Shown: positions 14,151-59,429 of the stretch, piece after piece
Position numbering within the stretch: the stretch's first letter is position 1
Layout of the letters: every line of letters begins with the position of its first letter
Source of the DNA: an uncultured Rhodothermales bacterium
Lineage (GTDB): Bacteria > Bacteroidota > Rhodothermia > Rhodothermales > VXPQ01
Assembly (NCBI GenBank): GCA_964608315.1
Contig: CAZSNF010000015.1
Span: 11,911 to 75,910 of the forward strand
Direction: 5' to 3'
DNA length: 64,000 bases
Made by a program: the position numbers and the translations under genes
The notes under the pieces: model-generated
Databases searched by the model: none
Seen by the model: only the letters and a program-made list of their open reading frames with translations
Told to the model about the DNA's origin: nothing

Positions 14151-14412
14151 TTAAGGAACCTCTGATTAATTCTACTTCGATCAGCGCTTCGCGTTCGCGC
14201 GTACAGTGACATTATGACGGCATCGTTGAAATCAGCGGCATACGCTACGGATTCGGGCGCAGCGGACGCGAAGCGCCCTTCGGGAGGCCGCGAGGAACGC
14301 GCTGGCCGCGTCATTCCTCATTATGCGGGGCCTGCCGCATTGCTTCGTCATTCCTTGCCAGCGCGTCCCTCGCAGCCTCTGAACTTTGCAGAATTAATCA
14401 GAGGTCCCTTAA
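14151..14412 (+). mobile_element. Full-length MITE-like element (254 bp) plus flanking TTAA direct repeats.
   Basis: Terminal inverted repeats GGAACCTCTGATTAATTCT (14155-14173) and AGAATTAATCAGAGGTCCC (14390-14408) differ at one position. TTAA lies at 14151-14154 and 14409-14412. It is the near-identical reverse complement of 59172-59425. Confidence 0.8.
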
Positions 14413-24971: not shown

Positions 24972-27900
24972 ATGGGTTGGCATAACGGGGAACTATCGTT
25001 CTCCTTGGTGCGAAAGGTGAAGTTTGTATGGATGTGCAGCAAGGAAGGCGATCATATATTCCCATCCGAACATAGGCGCGGCGCTCCGGATCGCCGGAAG
25101 CCAGGAGGGGGGACGGCCCCCCTTACATATTCGCCGATTGACCGACCGGTGTCTTGGGCGAGAGGTGTGTCCGCTAAACTGTGTAAGCGGGGTTATTCAA
25201 TAGGGACACGCCTGTCGCGACCTTTCCTCCAGCTGACCGTGCTGCTCCTGTTCGCCAGCGCGGCGCCGGCGCGCGGCCAGGACCAGAACGTCATCACCGT
25301 CGAACCCGGACCGGACGCGGTCGAGGGAGGCGGCGTCAGTTTCAACATCAAGCGCGCCTATGCTCACGCGTTGGGCGTCTCGGGCATCAAGTACTCCTGG
25401 TCGCAGGAGGGCTACTGGGTAGTCTGGGGAGGCTCGACGACCGGCATCAGCGGAGGCCTAAGCCAGCAGACTATCACCCTGACCGGCATCCCGGGCGACA
25501 ACATCGACAAGCCGAACGGTTCGGTCACCCTGAAAGTGAATACCGGCGCAGGCTATGTTGTGGGTTCGCCCTGGACCGCCACCGTCCCCGTGGCCGACGA
25601 CGACCCGACGCCGGTAACTTTAAGTGCGGTCGCCGGCGATATCGAAGAGGGCGGATCGAAGACGCTGACCGTCTCGCTGGGACGGGCTCTCGTGGCGGGC
25701 GAGCAGCTCACCGTCGCCCTGACCTTCGGCGGACAGGCCAGTTTCGGCGCCGACTACTCGCTTTCGGCGCCGGACCCGGCGCCGGCAGGGGTCTCCTACA
25801 CGAATCTTTCGAGCGACGACCTGACAGACGATCCGCCCAGCATCGTCTTCACCGGCGGGGCCAACGCCGCGGCCGCGGCCACGCTGATCCTGGAAAGCTC
25901 GAGGGACCGCGTCATGGAATCGAGCGAGACCGTGAGCGTCGGCCTGGGCACGCTCACCGCGGGCGAGGGCCTCGGGGGCGGAGCGTCCGCCGTCGCGGGA
26001 GGCGCGAGCTTCTCGATCGACGACGCCACGAAGATCCTGGTCGGCATCGCGGCCGCGGCCGATCCGGTCACCGAGGGCACGAACGCCGCCTTCACCCTCA
26101 CCGCCGATATCGCGCCGACCGCCGACGTGACGGTCGAAGTCGCGCTCACCCTGGTCGGCGGCAGCTACCTGAAGGACGAAGCGACATCGAAGAACGTGGT
26201 GATCAAGAAGGGCGCGACGACCGCCGGTTTCGCCCTGGAAACTGTCGGAGACACCGTCGACGAAGCCCCAGGCAGCGTGACGGCCGCCATCCAGAACGAC
26301 CCCGCCTACATCGTGGGGCCGAACGACGCCGCGAGCGTGAACATCCAGGACGACGATCCGACGTCCGTGACCCTGGAGGTCACGGACGCCGAAGCCATCG
26401 AGTTGACGACGCGGCAATCGGCCGCGATCCGGGTGAGGATCGGCCGCCGGCTGCGGTTCGACGAGAAACTCTCCGTTCCCCTTCTCTTCTCCGGCAGTAC
26501 GCCGAGAGCAAACCTCACCCTGGAACTGGTTCGGTCAGCCAGCACGGTGACCGCTCCTTCCTTCAACCCCACCACTGACATCCTGACGTTCAACCCCGGT
26601 TTCGGACGCAAGACAGGGGCCGCCGTCGCCGACATTCGCGTCAGCGTCACGCACCCCGACGGCAACGCCGTGGACGACACGATCATCGCGGATATTCCGA
26701 GGTCCTCCACGGGCACGCCCAGTCTCGGGGCGGCCAAACTGCAGGGCGGCGCCCTCGGCACCCGGAGCGGCGACGGAGAGATCGATGTCCTCGACCTTGA
26801 AGCCAGGCGCACGTTCCGGATATCCGGCGGAAGCGCGGTGGACGAGGGCGGCACGGCCAGCTTCACCGTGCACGCGGACCGGAAGACGGCCCGGAGCACC
26901 ATCGTTTTCGTCGACGTGACGCAGGAGGGCGACTTCGCCGCCGCGTCCTCCCTCGGAAGGAAGCAGGTCCGGGTGTTGCAACTCGCCACCAGCGGGACCC
27001 TGAACGTCCCGACGGTCGGGGACGACAAGAACGAGGCGCATGGCAAGATCGTAGCCACGATCAGCGCCAACAATGCCTACGTAGTCGCCGCCAAACCCGA
27101 CGACAGCGCCGCCGTGACGGTCAACGACGACGACGATCCTCCCGCTACCCCGCCGGTCGCGAAATTCGCCGCGGCTTCAGCGACCGCGGCGGAGACGGCG
27201 GGATCGACGATGATCGACGTCGCGCTCTCGCCCGCGCCTACAGCGGAACTCACGCTGAAGTATACGCTGTCCGGCTCCGCCGCCCTGGGGACCGACTACG
27301 CGATCGCCGGCGCGAGCGACGGCGCCGGAACCCTGACGATCCCGAAGGACAGCACGGCTGCTTCGATCAAGGTCGCGATCACGGACGACGCGCTCGGCGA
27401 AGGAAACGAGACCGTCGTCCTGAGCCTCGCCGACGGAACGGGCTACGCTCTCGGAACGCCCGCCCGTTTCACCCTGACCATCGCCGACGACGAACCCGCG
27501 CTCGCCATTTCGGCCTCGGCGCCCGCCGTCTCCGAGGGAACGGCCGCGACCTTCGCGGTGACCGCGAACCAGGCCGTCGCGGCGGACGTCAAGGCGAGCG
27601 TGACCGTGGCCGCCGGCGGCGATTTCGTCGCGGCCGACGACCTCGGCGCGCAAACGGTCACCATTGCGAAGGGCAAGAAAACCGCCGCGCTGTCGATTCC
27701 GACCGCGGACGACGAGACGGACGAGCCGAACGGCTGGATCCGCGCGACCCTTGACGCCAACTCCGCCTACACGATCCCGAAGCCTCCGAACAACAGCGCG
27801 CAGGTCGCCGTCAACGACGACGACGATCCTCCCGTCGACACGCCGGTCGCGAAATTCGCCGCGGCTTCAGCGACCGCGGCGGAGACGGCGGGATCGACGA

Positions 27901-29486
27901 TGATCGACGTCGCGCTCTCGCCCGCGCCTACAGCGGAACTCACGCTGAAGTATACGCTGTCCGGCTCCGCCGCCCTGGGGACCGACTACGCGATCGCCGG
28001 CGCGAGCGACGGCGCCGGAACCCTGACGATCCCGAAGGACAGCACGGCTGCTTCGATCAAGGTCGCGATCACGGACGACGCGCTCGGCGAAGGAAACGAG
28101 ACCGTCGTCCTGAGCCTCGCCGACGGAACGGGCTACGCTCTCGGAACGCCCGCCCGTTTCACCCTGACCATCGCCGACGACGAACCCGCGCTCGCCATTT
28201 CGGCCTCGGCGCCCGCCGTCTCCGAGGGAACGGCCGCGACCTTCGCGGTGACCGCGAACCAGGCCGTCGCGGCGGACGTCAAGGCGAGCGTGACCGTGGC
28301 CGCCGGCGGCGATTTCGTCGCGGCCGACGACCTCGGCGCGCAAACGGTCACCATTGCGAAGGGCAAGAAAACCGCCGCGCTGTCGATTCCGACCGCGGAC
28401 GACGAGACGGACGAGCCGAACGGCTGGATCCGCGCGACCCTTGACGCCAACTCCGCCTACACGATCCCGAAGCCTCCGAACAACAGCGCGCAGTGCACCG
28501 TCAACGACAACGACAACGCGCTGCCCGTCGTCAGCATCTCCGGCGGCGCGACGGTCACCGAGGGCGGCGAGGCGTCCTTTGACCTTACCGCTTCGCCGGC
28601 CCCGACCGAAAGCCTCGCGGTCGATGTAAGCATCGATCAAAACGGCGACTTCGCCGCACAGGGGCAAACCGGGCAGAGAACGATCACCCTCGGCGTAAGC
28701 GGCACAGTCCGCTTCAACGTCGCCACGGCGGACGACAACGCCGAAGAAACAAACGGAACGATACGAGCAACCGTCCAGAACGGAACTGGTTACGTCGCGG
28801 CCGATCCGCCGGCCAACAGCGCCCTGGTCGCTGTCAACGACAACGATACCGAGACAACCACGACCGAAGTAACGCTGTCGGCGACCCCCAACCCGGTGCA
28901 AGAAGGAGAGTACGTCACTATTACCGTTTCGTTCTCGCAGCCGCTCGACAACGACATAGCCATTCCGCTCATGTTCACGCCGGAAACGGCAGAGCCTGAC
29001 GACTTCGTCATGCTCGCCTTGATCACGATCAGGGCAAACGAGACGAGCGCGCAGGGCGCCATCGCGATATTGGAAGACGACGATCCGAACGACGAAACCT
29101 TCACCGTGAGTCTGGGAACGCTTCCTGAAAATCTCGTGGCCGGAACGCCTTCGTCGACCACCCTGCTCATTACGGATAAAACAAACGTTACATCGGTCGA
29201 ACCGGTCGGAGAGGAAATCCCCGCGGCCTTCGCTTTGGAGCAAAACTATCCGAACCCATTCAATCCGTCCACAACCATCGAATTCGCGCTCGACAAGACG
29301 CAGCGCATCACGCTTTCGGCGTACGACATGCTTGGTCAAGAGGTGCGGGTACTGATGGACGGCGTACAACCGGCGGGCCGCTACCGCGTATCGTTCGACG
29401 GGAGCGGACTTGCGAGCGGTACGTATCTGTATATCCTCCGCACCGAGGAGCAAGTGGCCGTCAAAACGATGGCGCTGCTCAAGTAG
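24972..29486 (+). CDS. Giant Calx-beta repeat surface protein with a T9SS C-terminal sorting domain.
   Basis: Repeated ~110-aa modules (e.g. LKYTLSGSAALGTDYAI...ITDDALGEGNETVVLSL). The C-terminus NYPNPFNPSTTIEFAL...GTYLYILRTEEQVAVKTMALLK is Por_Secre_tail-like. The signal peptide (LQLTVLLLFASAAPARGQ) suggests the real start is GTG 25167; 24972-25166 looks non-coding. Confidence 0.85.
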   Translation: MGWHNGELSFSLVRKVKFVWMCSKEGDHIFPSEHRRGAPDRRKPGGGTAPLTYSPIDRPVSWARGVSAKLCKRGYSIGTRLSRPFLQLTVLLLFASAAPARGQDQNVITVEPGPDAVEGGGVSFNIKRAYAHALGVSGIKYSWSQEGYWVVWGGSTTGISGGLSQQTITLTGIPGDNIDKPNGSVTLKVNTGAGYVVGSPWTATVPVADDDPTPVTLSAVAGDIEEGGSKTLTVSLGRALVAGEQLTVALTFGGQASFGADYSLSAPDPAPAGVSYTNLSSDDLTDDPPSIVFTGGANAAAAATLILESSRDRVMESSETVSVGLGTLTAGEGLGGGASAVAGGASFSIDDATKILVGIAAAADPVTEGTNAAFTLTADIAPTADVTVEVALTLVGGSYLKDEATSKNVVIKKGATTAGFALETVGDTVDEAPGSVTAAIQNDPAYIVGPNDAASVNIQDDDPTSVTLEVTDAEAIELTTRQSAAIRVRIGRRLRFDEKLSVPLLFSGSTPRANLTLELVRSASTVTAPSFNPTTDILTFNPGFGRKTGAAVADIRVSVTHPDGNAVDDTIIADIPRSSTGTPSLGAAKLQGGALGTRSGDGEIDVLDLEARRTFRISGGSAVDEGGTASFTVHADRKTARSTIVFVDVTQEGDFAAASSLGRKQVRVLQLATSGTLNVPTVGDDKNEAHGKIVATISANNAYVVAAKPDDSAAVTVNDDDDPPATPPVAKFAAASATAAETAGSTMIDVALSPAPTAELTLKYTLSGSAALGTDYAIAGASDGAGTLTIPKDSTAASIKVAITDDALGEGNETVVLSLADGTGYALGTPARFTLTIADDEPALAISASAPAVSEGTAATFAVTANQAVAADVKASVTVAAGGDFVAADDLGAQTVTIAKGKKTAALSIPTADDETDEPNGWIRATLDANSAYTIPKPPNNSAQVAVNDDDDPPVDTPVAKFAAASATAAETAGSTMIDVALSPAPTAELTLKYTLSGSAALGTDYAIAGASDGAGTLTIPKDSTAASIKVAITDDALGEGNETVVLSLADGTGYALGTPARFTLTIADDEPALAISASAPAVSEGTAATFAVTANQAVAADVKASVTVAAGGDFVAADDLGAQTVTIAKGKKTAALSIPTADDETDEPNGWIRATLDANSAYTIPKPPNNSAQCTVNDNDNALPVVSISGGATVTEGGEASFDLTASPAPTESLAVDVSIDQNGDFAAQGQTGQRTITLGVSGTVRFNVATADDNAEETNGTIRATVQNGTGYVAADPPANSALVAVNDNDTETTTTEVTLSATPNPVQEGEYVTITVSFSQPLDNDIAIPLMFTPETAEPDDFVMLALITIRANETSAQGAIAILEDDDPNDETFTVSLGTLPENLVAGTPSSTTLLITDKTNVTSVEPVGEEIPAAFALEQNYPNPFNPSTTIEFALDKTQRITLSAYDMLGQEVRVLMDGVQPAGRYRVSFDGSGLASGTYLYILRTEEQVAVKTMALLK
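27121..28500 (+). repeat. Tandem duplication (2 x 690 bp) inside the Calx-beta gene.
   Basis: 27151-27803 matches 27841-28493 base for base when read side by side. Track ORFs 27443..27760 and 28133..28450 have identical translations. Confidence 0.9.
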
Positions 29487-33887: not shown

Positions 33888-33904
33888 CTGAATCAGAGTA
33901 TCCC
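33888..33904. repeat. Solo terminal-repeat motif of the repeat family, between secY and map.
   Basis: CTGAATCAGAGTATCCC. On the gene strand it reads GGGATACTCTGATTCAGCGC followed by the map ATG. Confidence 0.6.
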
Positions 33905-36579: not shown

Positions 36580-36623
36580 ATAAAACCTGAATGAGTGTAG
36601 CGTAGTGTTTCGTAAGAAACTAT

Positions 36624-36659
36624 AGATACTCTGATTAAGTCCGCTTCATCAGAATATCC
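36624..36659. repeat. Mini-palindromic repeat-family unit between rplR and rpsE.
   Basis: AGATACTCTGATTAAGTCCGCTTCATCAGAATATCC has the two terminal repeats back to back with the GTCCGC linker seen in copy 43285-43537. It abuts the rplR stop codon. Confidence 0.65.
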
Positions 36660-37012
36660 TACAGTTGCAATCCCCCTTCGCGCGCGCCGTCCGCCAAAGC
36701 GCGGACGCGCCCGTGATAGCGATAACCGTTCCGGTCGAACACAACCTGTTCAATGCCCTGGTCGCGCGCCCGCCGGGCGATATTCGCGCCAACCGCCTTG
36801 CTGACCTCAATGGGCGTATCCCCGCCCACGCCGGACTCCTTGCTCGAAGCCGCCGCCAGCGTAACGCCCGCGCGGTCGTCGATCAGTTGCGCATAGATGT
36901 ACTTGTTCGAACGAAACACGGAAAGGCGCGGGCGCCGTGCGGTGCCAGCCACCTTCGCGCGCATGCCGCGCTTTACGCGACGTTTCCGTTCCTGTTTTTT
37001 GTGCGAGGCCAT
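36659..37012 (-). CDS. rplR: 50S ribosomal protein L18.
   Basis: Starts [21 protein letters not shown]...[19 protein letters not shown] (ATG verified at 37012). Confidence 0.92.
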
Positions 37013-38092: not shown

Positions 38093-38109
38093 TTAATCAG
38101 AGTATCCTT
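38093..38109. repeat. Solo terminal-repeat motif between rpsN and rpsH.
   Basis: TTAATCAGAGTATCCTT. On the gene strand it reads AAGGATACTCTGATTAAAACAAT followed by the rpsH ATG. Confidence 0.6.
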
Positions 38110-39826: not shown

Positions 39827-40117
39827 CTACCGGGCCCGTTCAATGACTTCGGCAAGACGCCAGCGCTTGCGCTTGCTAAGCGGGCGCGTTTCCATAATGC
39901 GTACGGAATCTCCCCGGTTCGCATCGTTGCGCTCGTCGTGCGCCATCAACTTCGTCGTCTTCTTGATGAACTTGCCGTATATCGGATGCTTGATCTGCCG
40001 CTGCACCGCCACCAGGATCGTTTTGTCCATGCGGTCGCTGATAACCACGCCGATGCGCTCCTTGCGCGATGGGCGGCTTGCCTGCGGCGCCGCAGCCTCT
40101 GTTGTGTCTGTGCTCAT
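39827..40117 (-). CDS. rpsQ: 30S ribosomal protein S17.
   Basis: [31 protein letters not shown]. Confidence 0.93.
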
Positions 40118-40133
40118 CGTCTTTGCTTCCGGT

Positions 40134-40331
40134 TCAAACTTCGTTTTCCTGCTCGCGCAGGATGGTTTTCAGTCGCGCAACGAGGCGCCGCTTCCGACGA
40201 AGCAACGTGGGGTTCTCAATCTGCGCAATGGCGTGCTGAAAATGCAGCCGGCGCAATTGATCCTCTTCCTCGTCGATGCGTTTCCGGGCCTCTTCCTGGC
40301 CGAGTTCGCGAATTTCGCTGGGCTTCAACAT
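40134..40331 (-). CDS. rpmC: 50S ribosomal protein L29.
   Basis: 65 aa: [31 protein letters not shown]. Confidence 0.9.
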
Positions 40332-40356
40332 GGCGCATTCCTGATATAATTAATGG

Positions 40357-40797
40357 CTATCGTCCGGCAGATTCTGCGGGCTGGTAGTCCGGGCGAACGA
40401 CGAACTTCGTCTTGATCGGCAGCTTGTGCCGGGCAAGCCGAAGCGCCTCCCGAGCCAATTCTTCCGAAATGCCCCCGCCGATCTCAAAAAGGATACGACC
40501 CGGCTTTACGTTGGCGGCCCAGTATTCCGGAGATCCCTTGCCCTTTCCCATGCGGGTTTCCGCAGGTTTTTTCGTAATCGGCTTGTCCGGGAAAATGCGA
40601 ATCCACACCTTGCCGACACGCTTCATGCGGCGCGTCATGGCGACGCGGGCCGCCTCGATCTGCCGACTGGTGATCCGTCCCGGCTCCAGTGCCTTGATGC
40701 CGAAATCGCCAAAATTGACGCTGGCCCCTCGCTGCGCATTCCCCTTGATGCGTCCTTTCTGGTACTTTCGGTACTTTGTCCGCTTCGGCGTTAACAT
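40357..40797 (-). CDS. rplP: 50S ribosomal protein L16.
   Basis: [19 protein letters not shown]...[12 protein letters not shown]. Confidence 0.95.
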
Positions 40798-40851
40798 GGC
40801 TATGCGTTATTTCGAATCTCTGAATGACAGAACGAGGGCGAAAACAGCAGG

Positions 40852-41595
40852 TCAGGAGGACGAATCGCCGTCGCGTCCCCGGCGCCCGCGACGCTTGCGC
40901 GCCGGCGGCTGAAACTGCTGCTGCATCTGCTGCCGCTGCGCCTGGATATTCGGACTCAGGTCGGGCTGCCCGAGGATTTCGCCCCGATATATCCATACTT
41001 TCACGCCGATAGAGCCGTAAATGGTGTGGGACGTAGCCTGGGCGAAGTCGATGTCGGCGCGGATCGTGTGCAGCGGAACGCGCCCTTCGAGATACTGCTC
41101 GGTACGGCCCATCTCCGCGCCGCCCAAACGCCCCGAAACGCGAATGCGAATCCCTTCCGCGCCCATGCGCATGGCCGAAGTAACCGCCTGCTTCATGGCC
41201 CGCCGAAACGAAATACGCCCCTCCAGCTGCTGAGCCACGTTCTGGGCAACCAGTTCGGCGTCCAGTTCGGGCCGCTTGATTTCGTTGATGTTTATCCGAA
41301 TGTCCTCCTTGTTCGTCAGTTTCCTGATTTCCTCGCGGAGTTTCTCCACCTCGCTGCCGCTGCGACCGATGACCACGCCGGGACGGCTCGTATGCAGCGT
41401 CAGCACGACGCTCTTCAGCGTACGTTCGATGACGCAACGGCTTAGTCCCGCGCGACGCAGGCGCGTCGCAAGATACCGGCGAATTTCTTCGTCCTCAACA
41501 AGTTTTACCGGCAAATCCCGCGTGGCGTACCAGTTGGAATCCCAACCTCGAATGATGCCTAACCGAAATCCGACCGGATGTGTTTTCTGACCCAA
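40852..41595 (-). CDS. rpsC: 30S ribosomal protein S3.
   Basis: MGQKTHPVGFRLGIIRGWDSNWYA, with a basic/Q-rich C-terminal tail. Confidence 0.95.
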   Translation of the reverse strand: MGQKTHPVGFRLGIIRGWDSNWYATRDLPVKLVEDEEIRRYLATRLRRAGLSRCVIERTLKSVVLTLHTSRPGVVIGRSGSEVEKLREEIRKLTNKEDIRININEIKRPELDAELVAQNVAQQLEGRISFRRAMKQAVTSAMRMGAEGIRIRVSGRLGGAEMGRTEQYLEGRVPLHTIRADIDFAQATSHTIYGSIGVKVWIYRGEILGQPDLSPNIQAQRQQMQQQFQPPARKRRGRRGRDGDSSS

Positions 41596-41643
41596 TGCCT
41601 TTCTCTTTTTAGCGTGTCCTTGTGCTGAGGTTATGCGATGCGC

Positions 41644-42021
41644 TTATGCGTCGTCTTCTGGCTCTTCCGTTTCGATCTCGCCCGTAGTCGCCACAACCAC
41701 GGTCAGGTGGCACGAACGTTTGAGTATGGGGTGGGCGCGCCCGCGAGACACTGGACGAAAACGTTTCATGCGCACCCCTTCGTCCGCCCGTATCTCCTTG
41801 ACCACCAGGTCGCTTTCTTCAAACCGGTCGTCCGGATTTCTGTCCATCAGATTGTACACGGCGGACTGAATCGTCAATTCGACCGGTCGGGTCGCCCTTT
41901 GCGGCTGATAATGCAAAATGCTGAGCGCATCCGCAACCGTCTTGCCGCGAACAAGGTTGATCACCGTACGCATCTTGCGAGGCGAACTGCGAATATGCTT
42001 TCTGATGGCGCGTGCTTCCAT
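41644..42021 (-). CDS. rplV: 50S ribosomal protein L22.
   Basis: MEARAIRKHIRSSPRKMRTVINLVRGK. Alternative upstream ATG at 42048. Confidence 0.92.
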   Translation of the reverse strand: MEARAIRKHIRSSPRKMRTVINLVRGKTVADALSILHYQPQRATRPVELTIQSAVYNLMDRNPDDRFEESDLVVKEIRADEGVRMKRFRPVSRGRAHPILKRSCHLTVVVATTGEIETEEPEDDA

Positions 42022-42079
42022 AAGTCGTCGTGCGTCCCGATAAACCATGCGGCGGCAGGCGAGAGCGCGGCTTGCGTGG

Positions 42080-42361
42080 TTATCGTTTGCGCTTGTCTAC
42101 GTTCTTCCCGGCGTGTCCGCGAAAAGATCGCGTGGGCGAAAATTCGCCCAACTTGTGGCCAACCATGTTTTCCGTCACATAGACCGGAATAAATTGCTTC
42201 CCGTTGTGCACGGCAAAGGTATGCCCAACGAATTCCGGGGTAATCATGGAATCCCTGCTCCAGGTCTTGATCACCTTTTTGGAATTACTCTTGTTCAGGG
42301 CGTCCACCTTGCGTTGCAACTTGAAGTGAACGTAAGGCCCTTTGCGTAGCGAACGTGCCAT
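42080..42361 (-). CDS. rpsS: 30S ribosomal protein S19.
   Basis: [15 protein letters not shown]...[23 protein letters not shown] (ATG verified at 42361). Confidence 0.95.
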
Positions 42362-42410
42362 GTTTTCGTAATCTGCTCTCCGAAAGCGACCGGGCGCGAA
42401 ACAGCGCCTG

Positions 42411-43232
42411 TCAGCCTCGCCGCCGGACGATGTACTTGTCGGATTGTTTGTTTTTCTTGCGCGTCTTGTATCCCTTGGCGGGAACGCCATGCGGAGAACG
42501 CGGCAGGCCCCCGGACGCTTTGCCTTCCCCGCCGCCCATCGGGTGGTCGATAGGGTTCATCGCCACGCCGCGCGTCTTGGGGCGGACGCCAAGCCACCGG
42601 TTGCGGCCTGCTTTCCCGATATCGATGTTCATGTGATCCAGGTTGCTCGCCACGCCAATGGTGGCCATGCACGCCACAGGAACAAGGCGCGTCTCCCCCG
42701 AAGGCAGTTTGAGCGTGGCGTACTTCCCTTCGCGGGCCATGAGCTGTGCGCTGGCCCCCGCCGAACGAGCCAGCTGCGCTCCTTTTCCGGGGCGCATCTC
42801 GATCGCATGGACTTGCGTGCCGAGGGGAATGCTGGACAACGGAAGGCAATTGCCCGGTTCGGGCGGAGCGTCCGGCCCGTTCCGAAGCGTCATGCCCACT
42901 TTCACCCCGTCGGGGGCGATAATATAGCGCTTTTCGCCGTCGGCATAGGCCAGCAACGCGATGCGGGCCGAACGATTGGGGTCGTATTCGATCGTAGCCA
43001 CCTGCGCCGGAATGCCCTGCTTGTTGCGCTTGAAATCAATGATGCGATACCGGCGCTTGTGGCCTCCGCCCTGGTGACGCGTGGTAATCCGCCCCGTGTT
43101 ATTGCGTCCGGCCTTGTGCTTCAACGGAGCCAGCAACTTTTTCTCGGGCTTCGACGACGTAATGTCGTCGAACGCATCGAGCGTATATTGCCGTCTGGCG
43201 TTGGAGGTCGGTTTTACTTTCCTGATGGCCAT
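42411..43232 (-). CDS. rplB: 50S ribosomal protein L2.
   Basis: Starts [14 protein letters not shown] (ATG verified at 43232), with GGGHKRRYR and HPMGGGEG. Confidence 0.95.
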
Positions 43233-43280
43233 GGTTATCCGCGATCCTGCAAGGGGCAGGCCCCTGCTTCGCAATGCGTA

Positions 43281-43541
43281 TTAAGGATACTCTGATCAAG
43301 TCCGCAAAGATCAGAGGCTGCCAGGCGCGCTCTGGCAAGGAATGACGAAGCAATGTGGCAGGTCCCGCATAATGAGAAATGACACAGCCAGAGCGCCTCT
43401 CGCAGCCTCCCGAAGGGCGCGTCACGTCCGCAACGACAGAAACCCGCGGTGTTTTCTGCTGATTTCAACGATGTAATCATGATGTCCTTACGGGCAAATG
43501 TGACGCGCTGGGCGAAGCGGTTTTGATCAGAGTATCCTTAA
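43281..43541 (-). mobile_element. Full-length but diverged MITE-like element (253 bp + TTAA duplications) inserted between rplW and rplB.
   Basis: GGATACTCTGATCAAGTCC (43285-) and GGTTTTGATCAGAGTATCC (-43537) are inverted ends. TTAA lies at 43281-43284 and 43538-43541. The internal sequence aligns along its whole length to 59172-59425. Confidence 0.8.
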
Positions 43542-43837
43542 ACCTGTTCGAAAAAGTCGATCGGCTCGGAATCCGGGTGCAACGTGATAATCGCCCGCTT
43601 GCGCCGCGCAGTGTGTCCCTCCACGACGCCCCGCCGGGTGCGCTGATTGCGTTGCTTGCCCCGAACGATACAGGTGCGAACCTTCTTGATCGAAACGGAA
43701 GGATAACGTTCCTGCACGGCTTTTTTGATCTCGACCTTGTTGGCGTCCAGCCGCACCTCGAAGGCATAATGGTTCTCTTCCATAAGCCTTGTCAGCTTCT
43801 CGGTAACCAGCGGCTGAATGAGTATGTCGTTACGCAT
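43538..43837 (-). CDS. rplW: 50S ribosomal protein L23.
   Basis: ILIQPLVTEKLTRLMEENHYAFEV...KVEIKKAV. Stop codon TAA (43540-43538) lies inside the TTAA flank of the element. Confidence 0.93.
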   Translation of the reverse strand: MRNDILIQPLVTEKLTRLMEENHYAFEVRLDANKVEIKKAVQERYPSVSIKKVRTCIVRGKQRNQRTRRGVVEGHTARRKRAIITLHPDSEPIDFFEQV

Positions 43838-43857
43838 GGCGATTTTGCCTGTATTCG

Positions 43858-44520
43858 TTACGATGCCGCGGCCCGGGCTGTTGCGTTTTCGCTGGATCCC
43901 AGCAAACGGGTGAGCAGCGTCAGGGCGCCTTTCTCAAAGACAACCACATCGGCGTCGAGAATGTCGAGCGTGGAAACATGCTGCGCTTCCTTGACCCGGA
44001 TGCGCGGAAGGTTGCTGCTTGAACGATATACTTCCGGGCTATGCGCTTCCGTAAGCACAAGCACCTTGTCGCCGGAAAAACCCATGGCCTCCACCAGATC
44101 CGCAAGTTTGCGGGAACTGGGCTCGTCGTACTGCAAATCGCCTACGACGCACACGGCATTGCGCTGCGCCTTGTAGCTGAGCGCAGACCGGCGGGCGAGA
44201 CGGCTTGCCTTCGCATTCATCTTGAAGCGGTACTGCCGGGGACGCGGCCCGAAAAACGTGCCGCCGCTCCGACGAAGCGGAGACGTACGGGCGCCCGCGC
44301 GCGCATAGCCCGTGCCTTTCTGGCGATACAGTTTCCGGGTGCTTCCCCGGACCTCGCTGCGCTCCTTCGTTTTATGCGTTCCCTGCCGCGCGCGAGCCTG
44401 TATTCTCCGCACGTCCAGCCAGATCACATGGTCGTTGGGCTCGATGGCGAACACCGAGGGGTCCAGCGACGCCTTGCGCTTCGCGGCGCTCCCGTCAGAA
44501 CCGAAAACCCTAACTTTCAT
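43858..44520 (-). CDS. rplD: 50S ribosomal protein L4.
   Basis: RQGTHKTKERSEVRGSTRKLYRQKGTGYAR. Confidence 0.93.
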   Translation of the reverse strand: MKVRVFGSDGSAAKRKASLDPSVFAIEPNDHVIWLDVRRIQARARQGTHKTKERSEVRGSTRKLYRQKGTGYARAGARTSPLRRSGGTFFGPRPRQYRFKMNAKASRLARRSALSYKAQRNAVCVVGDLQYDEPSSRKLADLVEAMGFSGDKVLVLTEAHSPEVYRSSSNLPRIRVKEAQHVSTLDILDADVVVFEKGALTLLTRLLGSSENATARAAAS

Positions 44521-44583
44521 AAAGCATCCGAACGCGTTCGAACCTGTGCGTTTCCGAGGGGCGCGCAGGCTGCAACAGAACCA

Positions 44584-45219
44584 TTATTTCTTTTTGTGGA
44601 TGGTGACGACGCCTCCTTTCGGACCGGGCACCGCGCCCTTCAGCAAAAGCGCATGCCGTTCGCCCAGCACCCGAACCACTTGCAGATTCTGCACGGTCGT
44701 GCGCGCATTGCCCATGCGCCCCGCCATCTTCATGCCGGGAAATACGCGGGAAGGATCGGAGGACGCGCCGATAGAGCCGGGCGCGCGCTCCCGATTGTGC
44801 TGGCCGTGCGTACGCGAACCCACGCCCCGGAATCCGTGCCGCCGCACCACGCCCTGAAAGCCTTTCCCCTTGGAAATACCGACGACGTCCACGATATCCC
44901 CTTCCTCGAACACATCGCTCACGACGATCTCGTCCCCGGGCGACAACTCCCGCCCCGCAAAATCGCGACGGAATTCGACCGACTTTTTCTTCGGCGAGGT
45001 TCCCGCCCGCTCGTAATGGCCCTTTCGGGCTCGCGTAGTCCGGGAGGGTTTGCACTCGAAGGCCGCAAGCTGCACGGCGTCGTAGCCGTCCGGTCCGTCG
45101 GCAGACTTCACCTGGGTTACGACATTCGGCGTCACTTCGACCAGCGTACAGGGAATGTTATTCCCCAACTCGTCGAACACATTGGTCATGCCCATTTTTT
45201 TGCCGATCAGCGCACCCAT
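44584..45219 (-). CDS. rplC: 50S ribosomal protein L3.
   Basis: MGALIGKKMGMTNVFDELGN...KGKGFQGVVRRHGF. Confidence 0.95.
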   Translation of the reverse strand: MGALIGKKMGMTNVFDELGNNIPCTLVEVTPNVVTQVKSADGPDGYDAVQLAAFECKPSRTTRARKGHYERAGTSPKKKSVEFRRDFAGRELSPGDEIVVSDVFEEGDIVDVVGISKGKGFQGVVRRHGFRGVGSRTHGQHNRERAPGSIGASSDPSRVFPGMKMAGRMGNARTTVQNLQVVRVLGERHALLLKGAVPGPKGGVVTIHKKK

Positions 45220-45223
45220 CGTA

Positions 45224-45706
45224 TTACTGCTTTTGAATAGTCACCATGACCGTGCCCTCGTAGGGCGTGGTCGGCTCGAAAACCGGATTGACGAGCGCCG
45301 CAGACGTCGTAAGGCGCGCCCGCGAATCGTTTTCGAACGCATACGTGAACGGAAGGCTGGCGCCGCTGACGATCGTCAGTGTAAGACTCCGCGGCCCGTC
45401 GTCCACTGCATACGTTCCGGGAAGCAGCAAATCTTCCCGTTCCGAAGCCTCCGTGTAATCCACCGTAAGCGAAAAAGCAGGGTCTTCGTCGCCCGCCTGA
45501 AATACGACAGTCATGCTGGTCACAAGCTCCGCAAAGGCCGCCGATTGATCGCCATTGCTATCGGTGATGGCGATGGCCGTCCAGGTCCCGACGAACCGCT
45601 CCGCGTCGGTGGGGCCTTCGTCGTTCGAATCGCACCCGACCGCCAGCAACGCCGGCGCGACCAGCAAGCTTGTTATGGAGAAGTATCTGCGCATCAACGC
45701 ACGCAT
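45224..45706 (-). CDS. Small lipoprotein (lipocalin-like?) encoded between rpsJ and rplC.
   Basis: MRALMRRYFSITSLLVAPALLAVGC has a lipobox and is followed by a 135-aa beta-rich sequence with FVGTWTA. ATG verified at 45706. In the track it is hidden inside the composite ORF 45224..46366. Confidence 0.7.
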   Translation of the reverse strand: MRALMRRYFSITSLLVAPALLAVGCDSNDEGPTDAERFVGTWTAIAITDSNGDQSAAFAELVTSMTVVFQAGDEDPAFSLTVDYTEASEREDLLLPGTYAVDDGPRSLTLTIVSGASLPFTYAFENDSRARLTTSAALVNPVFEPTTPYEGTVMVTIQKQ

Positions 45707-45723
45707 GGCGGTTTCAGGCAAAA

Positions 45724-46035
45724 TTACACTTTGATTTCCACATCGACGCCGCTCGGAAGCTCCAGCTTCATAAGCGCATCCACGGTTTTGCTGCTCGTGG
45801 ACAGGATATCGATCAGGCGCTCGTGACTTCGCGTTTCGAATTGCTCCCGGCTTTTCTTGTCCACGTGCGGACTGCGCAGCACCGTATACACTGACCGTTT
45901 CACGGGAAGCGGAATCGGACCGCTTACCACCGCGCCGGTGGACTTCACCGTACGGAGTATCTTGCTTGCGCTCTTGTCGATCAGCCGATGATCGTACGAC
46001 CTGAGCTTGATGCGAATTTTCTGATTCAGCGCCAT
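45724..46035 (-). CDS. rpsJ: 30S ribosomal protein S10.
   Basis: [22 protein letters not shown]. Confidence 0.95.
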
Positions 46036-46098
46036 GATCCTTGCCAGTCGTTCTCGCCGCGCCGAAGCGCGACAGGAATATCCCGATCTCGTTGCCTC

Positions 46099-47295
46099 CT
46101 AATCCAGTATCTTCGTCACCACGCCGGCGCCCACCGTACGGCCGCCCTCGCGAATCGCGAAGCGCAAGCCTTCCTCCATCGCCACCGGCTGAATCAGCTT
46201 CACTTCGAACTGCGTATTGTCGCCGGGCATCACCATTTCCACGCCGCCGGGCAATTCGATATCTCCCGTCACGTCGGTGGTGCGGAAGTAGAACTGCGGA
46301 CGGTAGCCCTTGAAGAACGGCGTGTGACGCCCTCCTTCCTCCTTGGACAACACGTACACCTCGCATTCGAAATGACGGTGGGGCTTAATGGAGCCCGGCT
46401 TGCAGATCACCATGCCGCGCTCAATCTCCTCCTTGCCGACGCCGCGAAGCAACAAGCCCACGTTATCCCCCGCCTGACCGGAATCAAGCAGTTTTCTGAA
46501 CATCTCCACGCCCGTCACCGTGGAGGTGATTTTCTCTTCCTGCATGCCGAGAATCTCCACCGGGTTGCCCACATTGATGACCCCCCGCTCGATCCGCCCC
46601 GTGGCGACCGTGCCGCGGCCCGTAATTGAAAAAATGTCCTCTACCGGCATCAGGAACGGCTTGTCCATCTCGCGGGCGGGCGTCGGAATGTAGGAATCCA
46701 CGGCGGTCATCAACTCCATGACCTTGTCCTCCCATTCCGTTTCGCCATTCAGGGCGCCGAGGGCGGAACCGGCGATAACCGGCGTATCGTCGCCGGGAAA
46801 TTCGTACGTATCGAGGAGTTCGCGCACTTCGATATCCACGAGTTCCAGTAGCTCCTCGTCGTCGACCAGGTCCACCTTGTTCAAAAACACCACGATGTAG
46901 GGAACGCCCACCTGACGGGCAAGCAGGATGTGCTCCCGGGTCTGCGGCATGGGACCGTCGGTGGCCGCCACAACGAGGATCGCGCCATCCATCTGGGCCG
47001 CGCCCGTCACCATGTTCTTGACGTAGTCGGCGTGCCCCGGGCAGTCCACATGGGCGTAATGGCGCGCATCCGTGGCGTATTCCACGTGCGCCGTAGCGAT
47101 CGTAATGCCCCGTTCGCGCTCTTCGGGGGCATTGTCGATGGAGTCGAACGAACGGATGGCGTTCGCCGGATCTTCCACGCGACGATTCAGGACCAGCGTA
47201 ATCGCTGCCGTCAACGTAGTCTTTCCGTGATCCACGTGTCCGATCGTGCCTATGTTCACGTGAGGCTTGCTGCGCTCAAAAGTTTCCTTTGCCAT
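46099..47295 (-). CDS. tuf: Elongation factor Tu.
   Basis: [32 protein letters not shown]; 398 aa. Confidence 0.97.
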
Positions 47296-53028: not shown

Positions 53029-56000
53029 CTAAGGAGTATTCAGCGGAATGACCCGGGCTGCTTGCGCCATGTCCTCCAATATGTATCGGACGCCTTGCAG
53101 CCCCGCCTCGGCAGCCTCCTCGCTCGGAAAATGGCCCAGCACGGCAAGGTAAACCGTCGCATCGTCCACCGAATCGACCACGACCGCGACTCGAAACCCC
53201 TGCTGCCTGTACGGCGCAATGAGCGTTTCCATGGGTTCGCGCTCGGCGTGGGCGTCGAACGCGATGGTGAATCCGCCCAATACAGGCTGAACGCCGCCCG
53301 GGCCGTACATGGAAAATTCGCCGGTGGGGATCTCGGACAGGGCCGGCGCAAACGCTTCTTCGGACAACACAGCGGTTTCGTCTGGCGGCGCAGGCGCTTC
53401 GCTCGGCGGGGCAAACGTTTCTTCCGCAGGAACAGGGACCTCGCTCGGCGGAGCGGAAACGTCTCTGGACGCCGCGGGCGCTTCGTCCGGCGGGGCGGCT
53501 TCGTCAAGGGAGTCGGGCGTCGCGCCAACCTGTTCGACGAAAAGGGAATCCGGAACGGTCGGCGCCGCAAGCGAATCGGCGAAGATATTCAGGGAGTCCG
53601 AAACAGCGGGCGCCGCAAGCGAATCAGCGGAGGCGTTCAGGGAATCCTGCAAGGCCTGTTCCGCATCCAGCACATCCAGGATATATCCGGCTCGCTCGGC
53701 ATACGGCGTACCGGGGTACAAGGTGCGGACGCCGGCGTACACCGAACGGAGATCGACGATATCTACGGCGGCGGAAGCAAGCAAATCGCCCGGCGGAACT
53801 TCGTCGTTCGCAGGCAACGCGACCAGCAAGTCCGGCGCAGCGTTCGCTTGCAAGGAATCCGCAGCAAGATCCGTTTGCAGGGAATCCGGCAAAGCGATTA
53901 CAGGGGATTCAGGGGATAAGGAATCCGCAGCGGCAAGCATGTCCGGCGGAGGTTGCATAATGCCGGCCTGGATCAGCACCGAATCCGGCAACGCGACGGA
54001 CAACGGCCCAAGCACGTCCAGCGAATCCTCGGCGGCCCATTCGAAATAAATGCGGCCCGCGGCGAACAGCGCCTTCGGCGCCGCCTCCATATCCCGATAA
54101 CGGGAAGCAATAAGCACCATGCGGCGAAACGCCTCTTCGTACGCCTCGTCCCGCCACTGAACCACCGCCTCTTCGTACGCCTCTTGCGCAACGGCAAGAC
54201 TGTCCAGCGTTTCCTTTGGCTCAAGGCCCAGTTCCATGCGAACCCGCGCGGCAAAATCGGAATCCGGATAATCAGACAAAACCTGCCGGTATATCCCTTG
54301 CGCACTGAGCGTATCGCCCAGCGAACGCTGCACTTCGGCCAAGGCGTAAAACGCTCGCTGGGCAACTTCTGCATCCGCATTCTCCTCGATCACCATACGA
54401 TACCAGACGGCAGCGGAATCCGCCTTGTTCATAGACAGGAAAAGCACATTCCCCAGTTCGTACCGGGCCAGCGCGCGCGCTTCTTCCATCTCCGCCTGGC
54501 TCAGCGAATCGCGCGGAACGCCGGACACGTCAATCAGGGGAAATGCAAACATATCCATAGCGCCCATTCCGCCATCCGAAGCGTCCGCCTCTTCTCCGGA
54601 ATCGCCCTCCTCGCGCGCGTTCAAGGCGATCGAAACGGCCTCCATGCGGCGCCAGCCGGGCACATGCGGACGTTCGCCCCAGCGCGACACAAAGTTTATG
54701 CGCGCCTCCTGTACGCGCACGCGGTCCCGATGATGCAGGAAGCCCGCCTCGCCAATATTGGCCGCGCTGGAGCTCCCGGCTGTTCCGACCGCCCCCGCCC
54801 GGGAAGCCGCATCCCGGAAGCCGCGCTCGGCTTGCAACTGCTCCGTGCGGCGACGCTCTTCTTCAAGTTCCCTCGCTTTCTGCTCCTGCATTGCGCGAAT
54901 GCGCTCTTCAAATTCCTCTTCGGGCAAACGCCCCAGCGCAAGCAACGAATCCATGCGAGCGACGCGGAGGCGCACCTCGGCGAAACCGCCGAACACGTCG
55001 GCCTGCTCATCCGCATCTGTCACGGCTTCGGGAGCATATTGCGCAACGCTTCCGGATCTCGAGGCGGAAAAGGCGGAAAGCGCTGTCCGGGCGGTATCGA
55101 AGTGCGCCGAAGCAAGCGGGTAATCCCGAAAAGCGTCCCGGTACAATTCGGCCAGCGCATAGTGCGTCAGTCCGCGGACGGTCTGGTTTCTGACTTCTTC
55201 CTCGTACAGGATGCGGTCGTATGCGGCGAACGCATCGCGGAACAAGCCTTGCGCCTGATAAATGCGGCCCCGCACATACGCAAGTTCGGGGCGGCGGTCG
55301 TAATGCTTGTCGTCGCGATCCATGCGACGCAATGCCTCCAGCGCCGCTACGCGATCAAGATGCATGCCCTGGACGCGCACCATGCTCAGCGACGCAGCAT
55401 AGTCCAGTTCGTACGGGGGGCGTTCCTTGCGCACCCGCTCGTAGGCCTCGACGGCGTCCTCGTACCGCTCCAGGGTTTCGTATACCTGGCCAAGCAAAAA
55501 AGCCCCTTTGGCCCGGAACTCCTTGTTGCGCGCATCGGACAAACCCGCTGCGAGTTCCTCCGCCGCCTTGTCGAAAGCACCCTGCTTAACGAACAATTCC
55601 CCAAACGCAAGGCGCAACTGCGCCCTCGACCGCCGCGAAACATTTTCCCGCTCCAGGCTGCCTGCAAGGTGTTGCTGCGCCGCTTCGTAGGAACGCACGG
55701 CCATCAGGGTCCGGGCCAGCCAGATCCGGGCCTCGTCCTCAAGGCTGGATCCGAAGGCGATGACCTCGCGGAATTTCTGTTCGGCGCCTACGTAATTTTC
55801 CTGATAAAAATAGGACTTTCCGATCAACATGAGCGCATCGTCCACCCATTTGGAGCGCGGATGGTCGATCAATATATCGGTGCTCTTGTCGATGGCCGCC
55901 CGGAAATTGACATTGCCGCCCGAGCGAGGCGGGCCTCCGAAGATGGCGAGATATTGCATCCGGTCTATGGGCTCCTCGGAGGATTCCATGGCCTGAACGC

Positions 56001-59167: not shown

Positions 59168-59429
59168 TTAGGGAACCTCTGGTTAATTCTGCAAAGTTCA
59201 GAGGCTGCGAGGGACGCGCTGGCAAGGAATGACGAAGCAATGCGGCAGGCCCCGCATAATGAGGAATGACGCGGCCAGCGCGTCCCTCGCAGCCTCCCGA
59301 AGGGCGCTTCGCGTCCGCTGCGCCCGAATACGTAGCGTATGCCGCTGATTGCAACGACGCCGTCATAATGTCACTGTACGCGCGAACGCGAAGCGCTGAT
59401 CGAAGTAGAATTAATCAGAGGTTCCTTAG
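59168..59429 (-). mobile_element. Full-length MITE-like element (254 bp) plus flanking TTAG direct repeats.
   Basis: Ends GGAACCTCTGGTTAATTCT (59172-59190) and AGAATTAATCAGAGGTTCC (59407-59425). TTAG lies at 59168-59171 and 59426-59429. A perfect 23-bp inverted repeat pairs 59201-59223 with 59274-59296. Confidence 0.85.

Follow-up and report, generated by a model that had tools for sequence, protein, structure and literature searches.

This study analyzed a window of 64,000 nucleotides from an uncultured Rhodothermales bacterium (NCBI GenBank assembly GCA_964608315.1, contig CAZSNF010000015.1, positions 11,911 to 75,910 of the forward strand), in which the S10 ribosomal protein operon lies on the minus strand. 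Two adjacent genes of this operon, rplW and rplB, are separated by a gap of 305 nt. The rplW stop codon (TAA, 43538-43540) falls within a TTAA tetranucleotide, and the gap that follows it is filled by a 253-bp element, a second TTAA, and the spacer that leads to the rplB start codon. The features of the locus are as follows:

42411-43232, minus strand: rplB (ribosomal protein L2), 273 aa, from the ORF list, with its ATG at 43232
43233-43280, minus strand: native rplW-rplB spacer of 48 nt downstream of the insertion, containing the rplB initiation region, recognized from the homologous spacers of congeners
43281-43284, no strand assigned: TTAA target-site duplication, copy 2, recognized from the single TTAA at the empty sites of congeners
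43285-43537, no strand assigned: 253-bp body of the element, classified here as an IS5-derived MITE from its approximately 127 full-length genome copies and its absence at this site in 11 congeners
43285-43303, no strand assigned: terminal inverted repeat at the operon-3' end, from terminus comparison
43313-43410, minus strand: predicted internal hairpin B, with a 21-bp G+C-rich stem and a 10-bp distal stem, from the minimum free energy (MFE) fold and compensatory changes across copies
43411-43514, minus strand: predicted internal hairpin A, branched, with stems of 9 and 11 bp and distal stems, from the MFE fold and compensatory changes across copies
43519-43537, no strand assigned: terminal inverted repeat at the operon-5' end (GGATACTCTGATCAA and four imperfect nucleotides), whose 15-nt terminus equals that of the IS5-family insertion sequence (IS) of congeners
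43538-43541, no strand assigned: TTAA target-site duplication, copy 1, which holds the rplW stop codon, recognized from the single TTAA at the empty sites of congeners
43538-43837, minus strand: rplW (ribosomal protein L23), 99 aa, from the ORF list and a Pfam Ribosomal_L23 match on identical public-contig products

We compared the rplW-rplB spacer with that of 11 other species of the genus, in which it measured 27-50 nt. Each of the 11 congeners had a precise empty site (…CAGGT TTAA TACG…) with a single TTAA, which is exactly what remains at this locus of the present genome once the element and one TTAA are taken out. The homologous native spacer was 44-50 nt long in seven of them and 27-33 nt in four. 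Despite the insertion, L23 is unaltered and the native 48-nt region upstream of rplB is intact. The spacers of family-level relatives were unrelated in sequence (39-126 nt) and the element was absent from the locus; in more distant bacteria, the spacer was usually 1-80 nt. An apparent 289-nt spacer in one family-level relative was rejected as an assembly gap, as it includes a stretch of Ns and a flank that is present twice. These comparisons indicate that the insertion is specific to this lineage and took place after the lineage had separated from its nearest sister species. A preliminary description of this DNA had placed a full-length repeat copy at this normally short junction, and the empty sites, the spacer lengths, and the approximately 127 copies elsewhere in the genome bore this out; the 253-bp size, the coordinates, the position of the stop codon within TTAA, and the 48-nt distance to rplB were likewise correct on the sequence.

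The native spacer contains a 7-bp hairpin of its own (GCAGGGG…CCCUUGC, 43249-43267), which is common to 7 of the 11 congeners. One compensatory variant of this hairpin (GGAT/ATCC) occurs in congener G008, and the hairpin is deleted in the four closest relatives.

The 15-nt termini of the rplW-rplB copy form perfect inverted repeats at both ends, and the arms including the TTAAs span 25 nt with 92% complementarity. At no more than three mismatches, the 17-mer terminus occurred 16 times in the window versus 0.02 occurrences expected. A blastn search of the 3.08-Mb genome recovered approximately 127 full-length copies, which lie on most contigs, and approximately 290 fragments, and a terminus search counted approximately 900 termini, including those of shorter size classes of 150-229 nt and less than 150 nt. 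The family was present in 12/12 genomes of the genus, with the highest terminus count in this lineage; outside the genus, a search of 19 other genera from the same family and order gave only one weak match (E = 8.7e-5). Four-base flanks were identical in 61 of the 120 copies with both termini located and differed by one base in 35 more. TTAA accounted for 36 of the 61 identical pairs, followed by TTTA, TATA, and others.

To find the parent IS, a DDE_Tnp_1 search was conducted across the genus. An IS of 1171-1181 bp with the same 15-nt termini was present in 12-13 copies in each of the congeners G003 and G002; its flanks formed a matching TAAG duplication in the examined G003 copy and were one base apart (TAAA/TTAA) in a G002 copy. 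Its transposase of 315 aa matched NF033581 (NCBIfam IS5-family) with 332 bits at a cut-off of 140, as well as PF01609 (DDE_Tnp_1) and PF05598 (DUF772). The short element shares only the termini with this IS, and its interior exhibits no similarity to it. Because the termini are shared with an IS5-family IS, we conclude that the element is a non-autonomous MITE of the IS5 family, which would be mobilized in trans by a transposase of this kind. As in the IS5 group, the termini start with GGA and a 4-bp target duplication arises at a YTAR-like site with a preference for TTAA; unlike in that group, the 220-bp interior of the MITE has nothing in common with the IS and folds into two conserved hairpins.

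An intact parent IS was not found in this 96%-complete assembly. A tblastn search with the transposase of the congeners detected a C-terminal remnant as the sole trace (C5:28883-29193, aa 211-314, 62-68% identity). Copies of another MITE subfamily are 97-99% identical, which suggests recent mobilization by a transposase that is now lost or unassembled. Approximately 30 pairs of termini lying 0.7-3.5 kb apart were considered as candidates for an autonomous IS in this genome, and none was identified as one. Just one of these pairs has matching TTAA flanks at either end, and what it encloses is the glutamate 5-kinase gene, an ordinary gene with a MITE on each side. Long self-similar regions, considered as further candidates, were paralogous protein genes instead.

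We further analyzed where the copies sit, using the calls of a simple home-made codon-usage caller (1945 genes, 80% coding), which recovered the ribosomal protein genes. None of the 127 copies lay inside a called gene; the neighboring genes were co-directional for 74 copies, divergent for 30, and convergent for 20. In 18 of the 127 copies, the stop codon of a gene falls inside the 4-bp duplication, and in seven more, a gene ends in the terminus. Among the co-directional pairs, 24 copies lie within 120 nt of both neighbors. Residence inside probable operons thus appears to be common for the family. Since TTAA sites concentrate at TAA stops in a genome of 60% G+C, the rplW site is one instance of a general funnel, and the insertion at the rplW stop is typical for the family. 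The locus illustrates how elements that target TTAA are funneled to TAA stops in such a genome. The copies also exhibited an orientation bias, which rests on the home-made gene caller and pools both directions of replication: 47:27 in co-directional pairs (p = 0.027) and 18:6 in the tight pairs (p = 0.023), with the rplW-rplB copy in the favored orientation. This modest bias hints that the two orientations may not be neutral for expression, whether through a promoter, polarity, or RNA stability.

The age of the rplW-rplB copy was assessed from its divergence. Its nearest copy in the genome is 86% identical, the family median being 95%, and it forms a singleton at a clustering cut of 12%; its best matches in congeners are 87-89% identical. 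Across the 11 congeners, L23 is 86-97% identical. The closest sister species, which carries no element at the site, is 97% identical in L23 and 96% in L2, and the third codon positions of rplW and rplB are 82-84% identical to it. Because third-position identity to this sister is just 82-84%, an insertion after the split fits the divergence of the copy. Part of that divergence reflects the lack of a close source copy in the genome. The copy had been described as more diverged than two others in the window and hence as older. The first part stood, as it is approximately 79% identical to the copies at 14152-14412 and 59168-59428, which are 97% identical to each other; the second, which places it among the older copies, holds only relative to that recently amplified subfamily, the insertion being younger than the sister split.

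The structure of the element was then considered. The operon-sense RNA was predicted to fold with -143.8 kcal/mol (z = -7.4 versus shuffles) into two long internal hairpins and a 24-bp outer stem in which the termini pair. As RNAalifold with default settings produced a poor consensus from the 127-copy alignment, we used the consensus MFE structure with our own pair counts. On this structure, 89.6% of the cells in the 127-copy alignment held standard pairs, versus 35-42% in a control in which the 3' partner was slid by 1-3 columns. Compensatory changes on both sides were observed in 44 of 89 pairs, including those of the internal hairpins (e.g., A-T in 67 copies and G-C in 42), although these counts are not independent events, as subfamilies amplify. 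The rplW-rplB copy keeps 73 of the 89 consensus pairs (family median 80), and all five of its doubly changed pairs are still paired. These results indicate that the fold has been retained between subfamilies. Selection on a single RNA strand was looked for through the asymmetry of G-U versus A-C pairs and through the MFE of both orientations, and none was detected: the sense orientation gives the better fold in 56 of the 127 copies, and the two mean energies are equal. Because strand asymmetry is absent, the constraint could act on DNA or on the RNA of either strand.

A coding reading of the element was also considered and rejected. In the favored orientation, the consensus has a frame that is open across the entire element (86 codons), for which the chance is approximately 6% per frame, and hairpin covariation dominates; it was rejected also because the element and its duplication total 257 nt, which is not a multiple of three. 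The open frame is probably the product of chance and shared ancestry. In the favored orientation, the longest open stretch has a median of 86 codons versus 60 in the other orientation, and the other two frames of the consensus are closed by TTAA and by a TGA in the terminus.

On the basis of these findings, we propose the following sequence of events. A transposase supplied in trans would have inserted the MITE at the TTAA overlapping the rplW stop codon, thereby duplicating four bases. L23 is unaltered because the original TTAA copy remains on the rplW side, and the initiation signals of rplB are unaltered because its native 48-nt upstream region is kept whole on the far side. The S10 operon transcript would presumably run through the element, as suggested by its position and by the terminator scan, in which no canonical intrinsic terminator was found in either orientation of the element (two weak terminator-like sites, no more than chance would give at 0.7 +/- 0.9 expected). 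A gene for Rho is present in the genome, and the dense folding would prevent Rho from entering at the 305-nt untranslated gap. The long perfect stems of 24 bp and 21 bp are predicted to be likely substrates of RNase III, the gene for which is present (TIGR02191, 223.8 bits, above the cut-off), so the mRNA may be cut into a part from rpsJ to rplW and a part from rplB onwards. The net fitness effect would be small, and the MITE would be a tolerated passenger and no dedicated regulator. We consider it probable that the element is such a tolerated, co-transcribed IS5-family passenger, with RNase III possibly cutting its long stems.

An extension of this reading, which we regard as doubtful, is that the family has evolved to be safe in operons: it would be free of terminators, too folded for Rho, and able to excise itself at the RNA level through RNase III cleavage at the stem of the terminal inverted repeats, in the favored orientation. 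If this were true, the family could colonize even the most highly expressed essential operons; three separate traces of it occur in the ribosomal protein cluster of this genome. The S10 mRNA would then be physically split, and the genes from rplB onwards would be uncoupled from leader-based control at the rpsJ end.

Alternatively, the hairpins might serve as a partial terminator, an attenuator, or a regulated processing site that lowers the expression of rplB and the following genes or uncouples it from that of rpsJ-rplW, a function that could have been selected. The very stable predicted fold, the family-wide compensatory changes in 44 of 89 pairs, the RNase III gene, and a moderately U-rich stretch after hairpin B (UCUGAUCUUUG) are consistent with this reading. 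However, none of the hairpins has a canonical U-tract after it, and the cell needs the downstream genes, which are essential, in equal amounts. The insertion is moreover the sole allele seen in several independent samples, and the element also resides in at least 24 other tight co-directional gene pairs. The fold is equally stable on both strands (56/127 better in sense), and without strand asymmetry the conservation of the structure need not reflect selection at the RNA level. We therefore judge a regulatory function of this kind unlikely.

An outward-facing promoter within the MITE might instead transcribe rplB and the downstream genes at least partly and thus split the S10 operon. The orientation bias (47:27, and 18:6 in tight pairs), with the rplW-rplB copy in the favored orientation, points in this direction, as do copies that end just 4-20 nt before the start of the next gene. 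An A..TTTG-like motif (GATCTTTG; consensus GAACTTTG) lies approximately 30 nt from the downstream end, and promoters have been documented in Correia and other MITEs (PMC10969869). By contrast, the promoter scan yielded no sigma-70-type match, the consensus used being that of sigma-70, which may not be that of this phylum. The motif departs from the Bacteroidota TAnnTTTG and has no well-spaced upstream TTG, and a genome-wide motif search was swamped by MITE k-mers (TA..TTTG occurred 22 versus 11 times in upstream regions). The bias itself is modest and depends on the home-made gene caller. We hold a promoter effect at rplB to be distinctly improbable.

A dedicated, locus-specific leader RNA of rplB, such as an autoregulatory site for a ribosomal protein, is suggested by the strong predicted structure within a ribosomal protein operon, but it is too improbable to be entertained in view of the element's absence from the locus in 11/11 congeners and in family-level relatives, its 127 dispersed copies, and its terminal inverted repeats and target duplication. 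An Rfam scan of 40000-47000 at E <= 1 produced no match. The preliminary description had named a conserved leader with covariation as the finding that would speak against an insertion; the comparison of spacers in related genomes returned empty sites instead. For annotators, the locus is a warning against taking this long rplW-rplB gap for a regulatory RNA.

To examine the junctions in other data, independent Logan assemblies were located by the exact protein sequence of L23 or L2. An identical L23 was found in SRR22586461, SRR8304769, SRR8304771, and SRR8304772, the contig of the last being shared by six samples, and an identical L2 was found in SRR8304767, SRR8304770, and others. The contigs bearing L23 stop 25 nt beyond the rplW stop codon, reading …GGTTTAAGGATACTCTGATCAAAACCGCTTCG, and those bearing L2 begin inside the element, 124 nt ahead of the rplB ATG; neither set differs from the window. 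The Logan contigs break within the element because its interior is repetitive. No empty site was present among the Logan contigs with identical L23 or L2, and an exact-pattern metagenome scan for the end of rplW returned no match. Since independent assemblies from at least seven runs (SRR22586461 and SRR8304767-72) reproduce both junctions to the base, these junctions are real. The genome is a draft of 54 contigs, many of them broken by repeats, but a repeat misplaced in the contig is hardly conceivable, given that this copy is unique in sequence (at most 86-88% identical to any other), is bordered by a perfect TTAA duplication, and has both junctions reproduced; the assembly artefact that the preliminary description had allowed for is thereby set aside.

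Comparable elements have been described in other bacteria. [quoted passage not shown] 2008, cited in PMC10969869) lies in an operon whose structure is, in the account given there, reported to be undisturbed. According to the same account, it resembles the present element in being a MITE of approximately 235 bp with terminal inverted repeats and direct repeats, located inside an operon and accompanied by dozens of other intergenic copies. It differs in phylum and in occupying a phosphate-uptake operon rather than the essential S10 operon, and its co-transcription is described there as shown, whereas that of the present element is inferred from its position. Operon transcripts of Neisseria that contain Correia elements undergo RNase III cleavage at the terminal inverted repeats of these elements, and ERIC elements of Enterobacteria and Yersinia alter mRNA decay (PMC10969869). 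Like these, the present family is a high-copy MITE co-transcribed, presumably, with its neighbors, and the long hairpins formed by their terminal inverted repeats have a counterpart here in the predicted 24-bp stem and the RNase III gene. Correia elements differ in duplicating TA, in having documented promoters and an IHF site, and in being without a known parent IS of the IS5 type.

MITEs in operons are already known, and an IS5-derived MITE is an element of an ordinary kind; its location here, the S10 operon, is an unusually sensitive one. Few transcription units are expressed as highly or constrained as tightly in stoichiometry as this operon. The fixed insertion would constitute a natural experiment on how much strongly folded non-coding RNA an essential polycistronic message can bear. 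Together with the filled site, the empty sites of the eleven sister species provide a before-and-after pair for studying transcriptional read-through, polarity due to Rho, and processing by RNase III.

Further traces of the family were found when the ribosomal protein cluster was compared with that of 10 congeners over the same 14.5 kb. Two of them, in the downstream spc genes, are as follows:

36621-36663, no strand assigned: 35-bp mini-derivative composed of two termini and a 6-nt loop, flanked by TATA/TACA, at the stop codon of rplR (L18) between rplR and rpsE
38093-38109, minus strand: solo terminus in the 25-nt rpsN-rpsH spacer, ending 6 nt before the rpsH ATG and absent in the 10 congeners examined

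The mini-derivative lies 42 nt upstream of rpsE, and all 10 congeners examined carried an empty site at this position (CAACTGTAGTTTC). At the rpsN-rpsH site, 10/10 congeners had an unrelated, conserved spacer of 21-22 nt (CGTTTTTCGATTCAAGACGAT), and the trace looks like the result of an insertion followed by a deletion that removed the native spacer as well. An older solo terminus (GGATACTCTGATTCA) lies between secY and map at approximately 33889-33903; it is common to G001 and G006, with more mismatches in G006, and is not found in the others. These findings indicate that the ribosomal protein cluster has been hit repeatedly in this lineage.

Other features of the window were also observed. 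The S10 operon carries an unusual passenger between rpsJ and rplC, a gene for a predicted lipoprotein of 160 aa (45224-45706, minus strand). Its signal peptide ends in …LLAVGC, and the product exhibited a weak match to Lipocalin_4 (E = 0.048), under the cut-off. The gene occupies the same place in 10/10 congeners examined, with 61-81% identity. A repeat scan of the window detected three 48-nt units in tandem at 53543-53686 and a 300-nt direct repeat (27100-27399 and 27790-28089), the copies of which are 96% identical and lie 690 nt apart.
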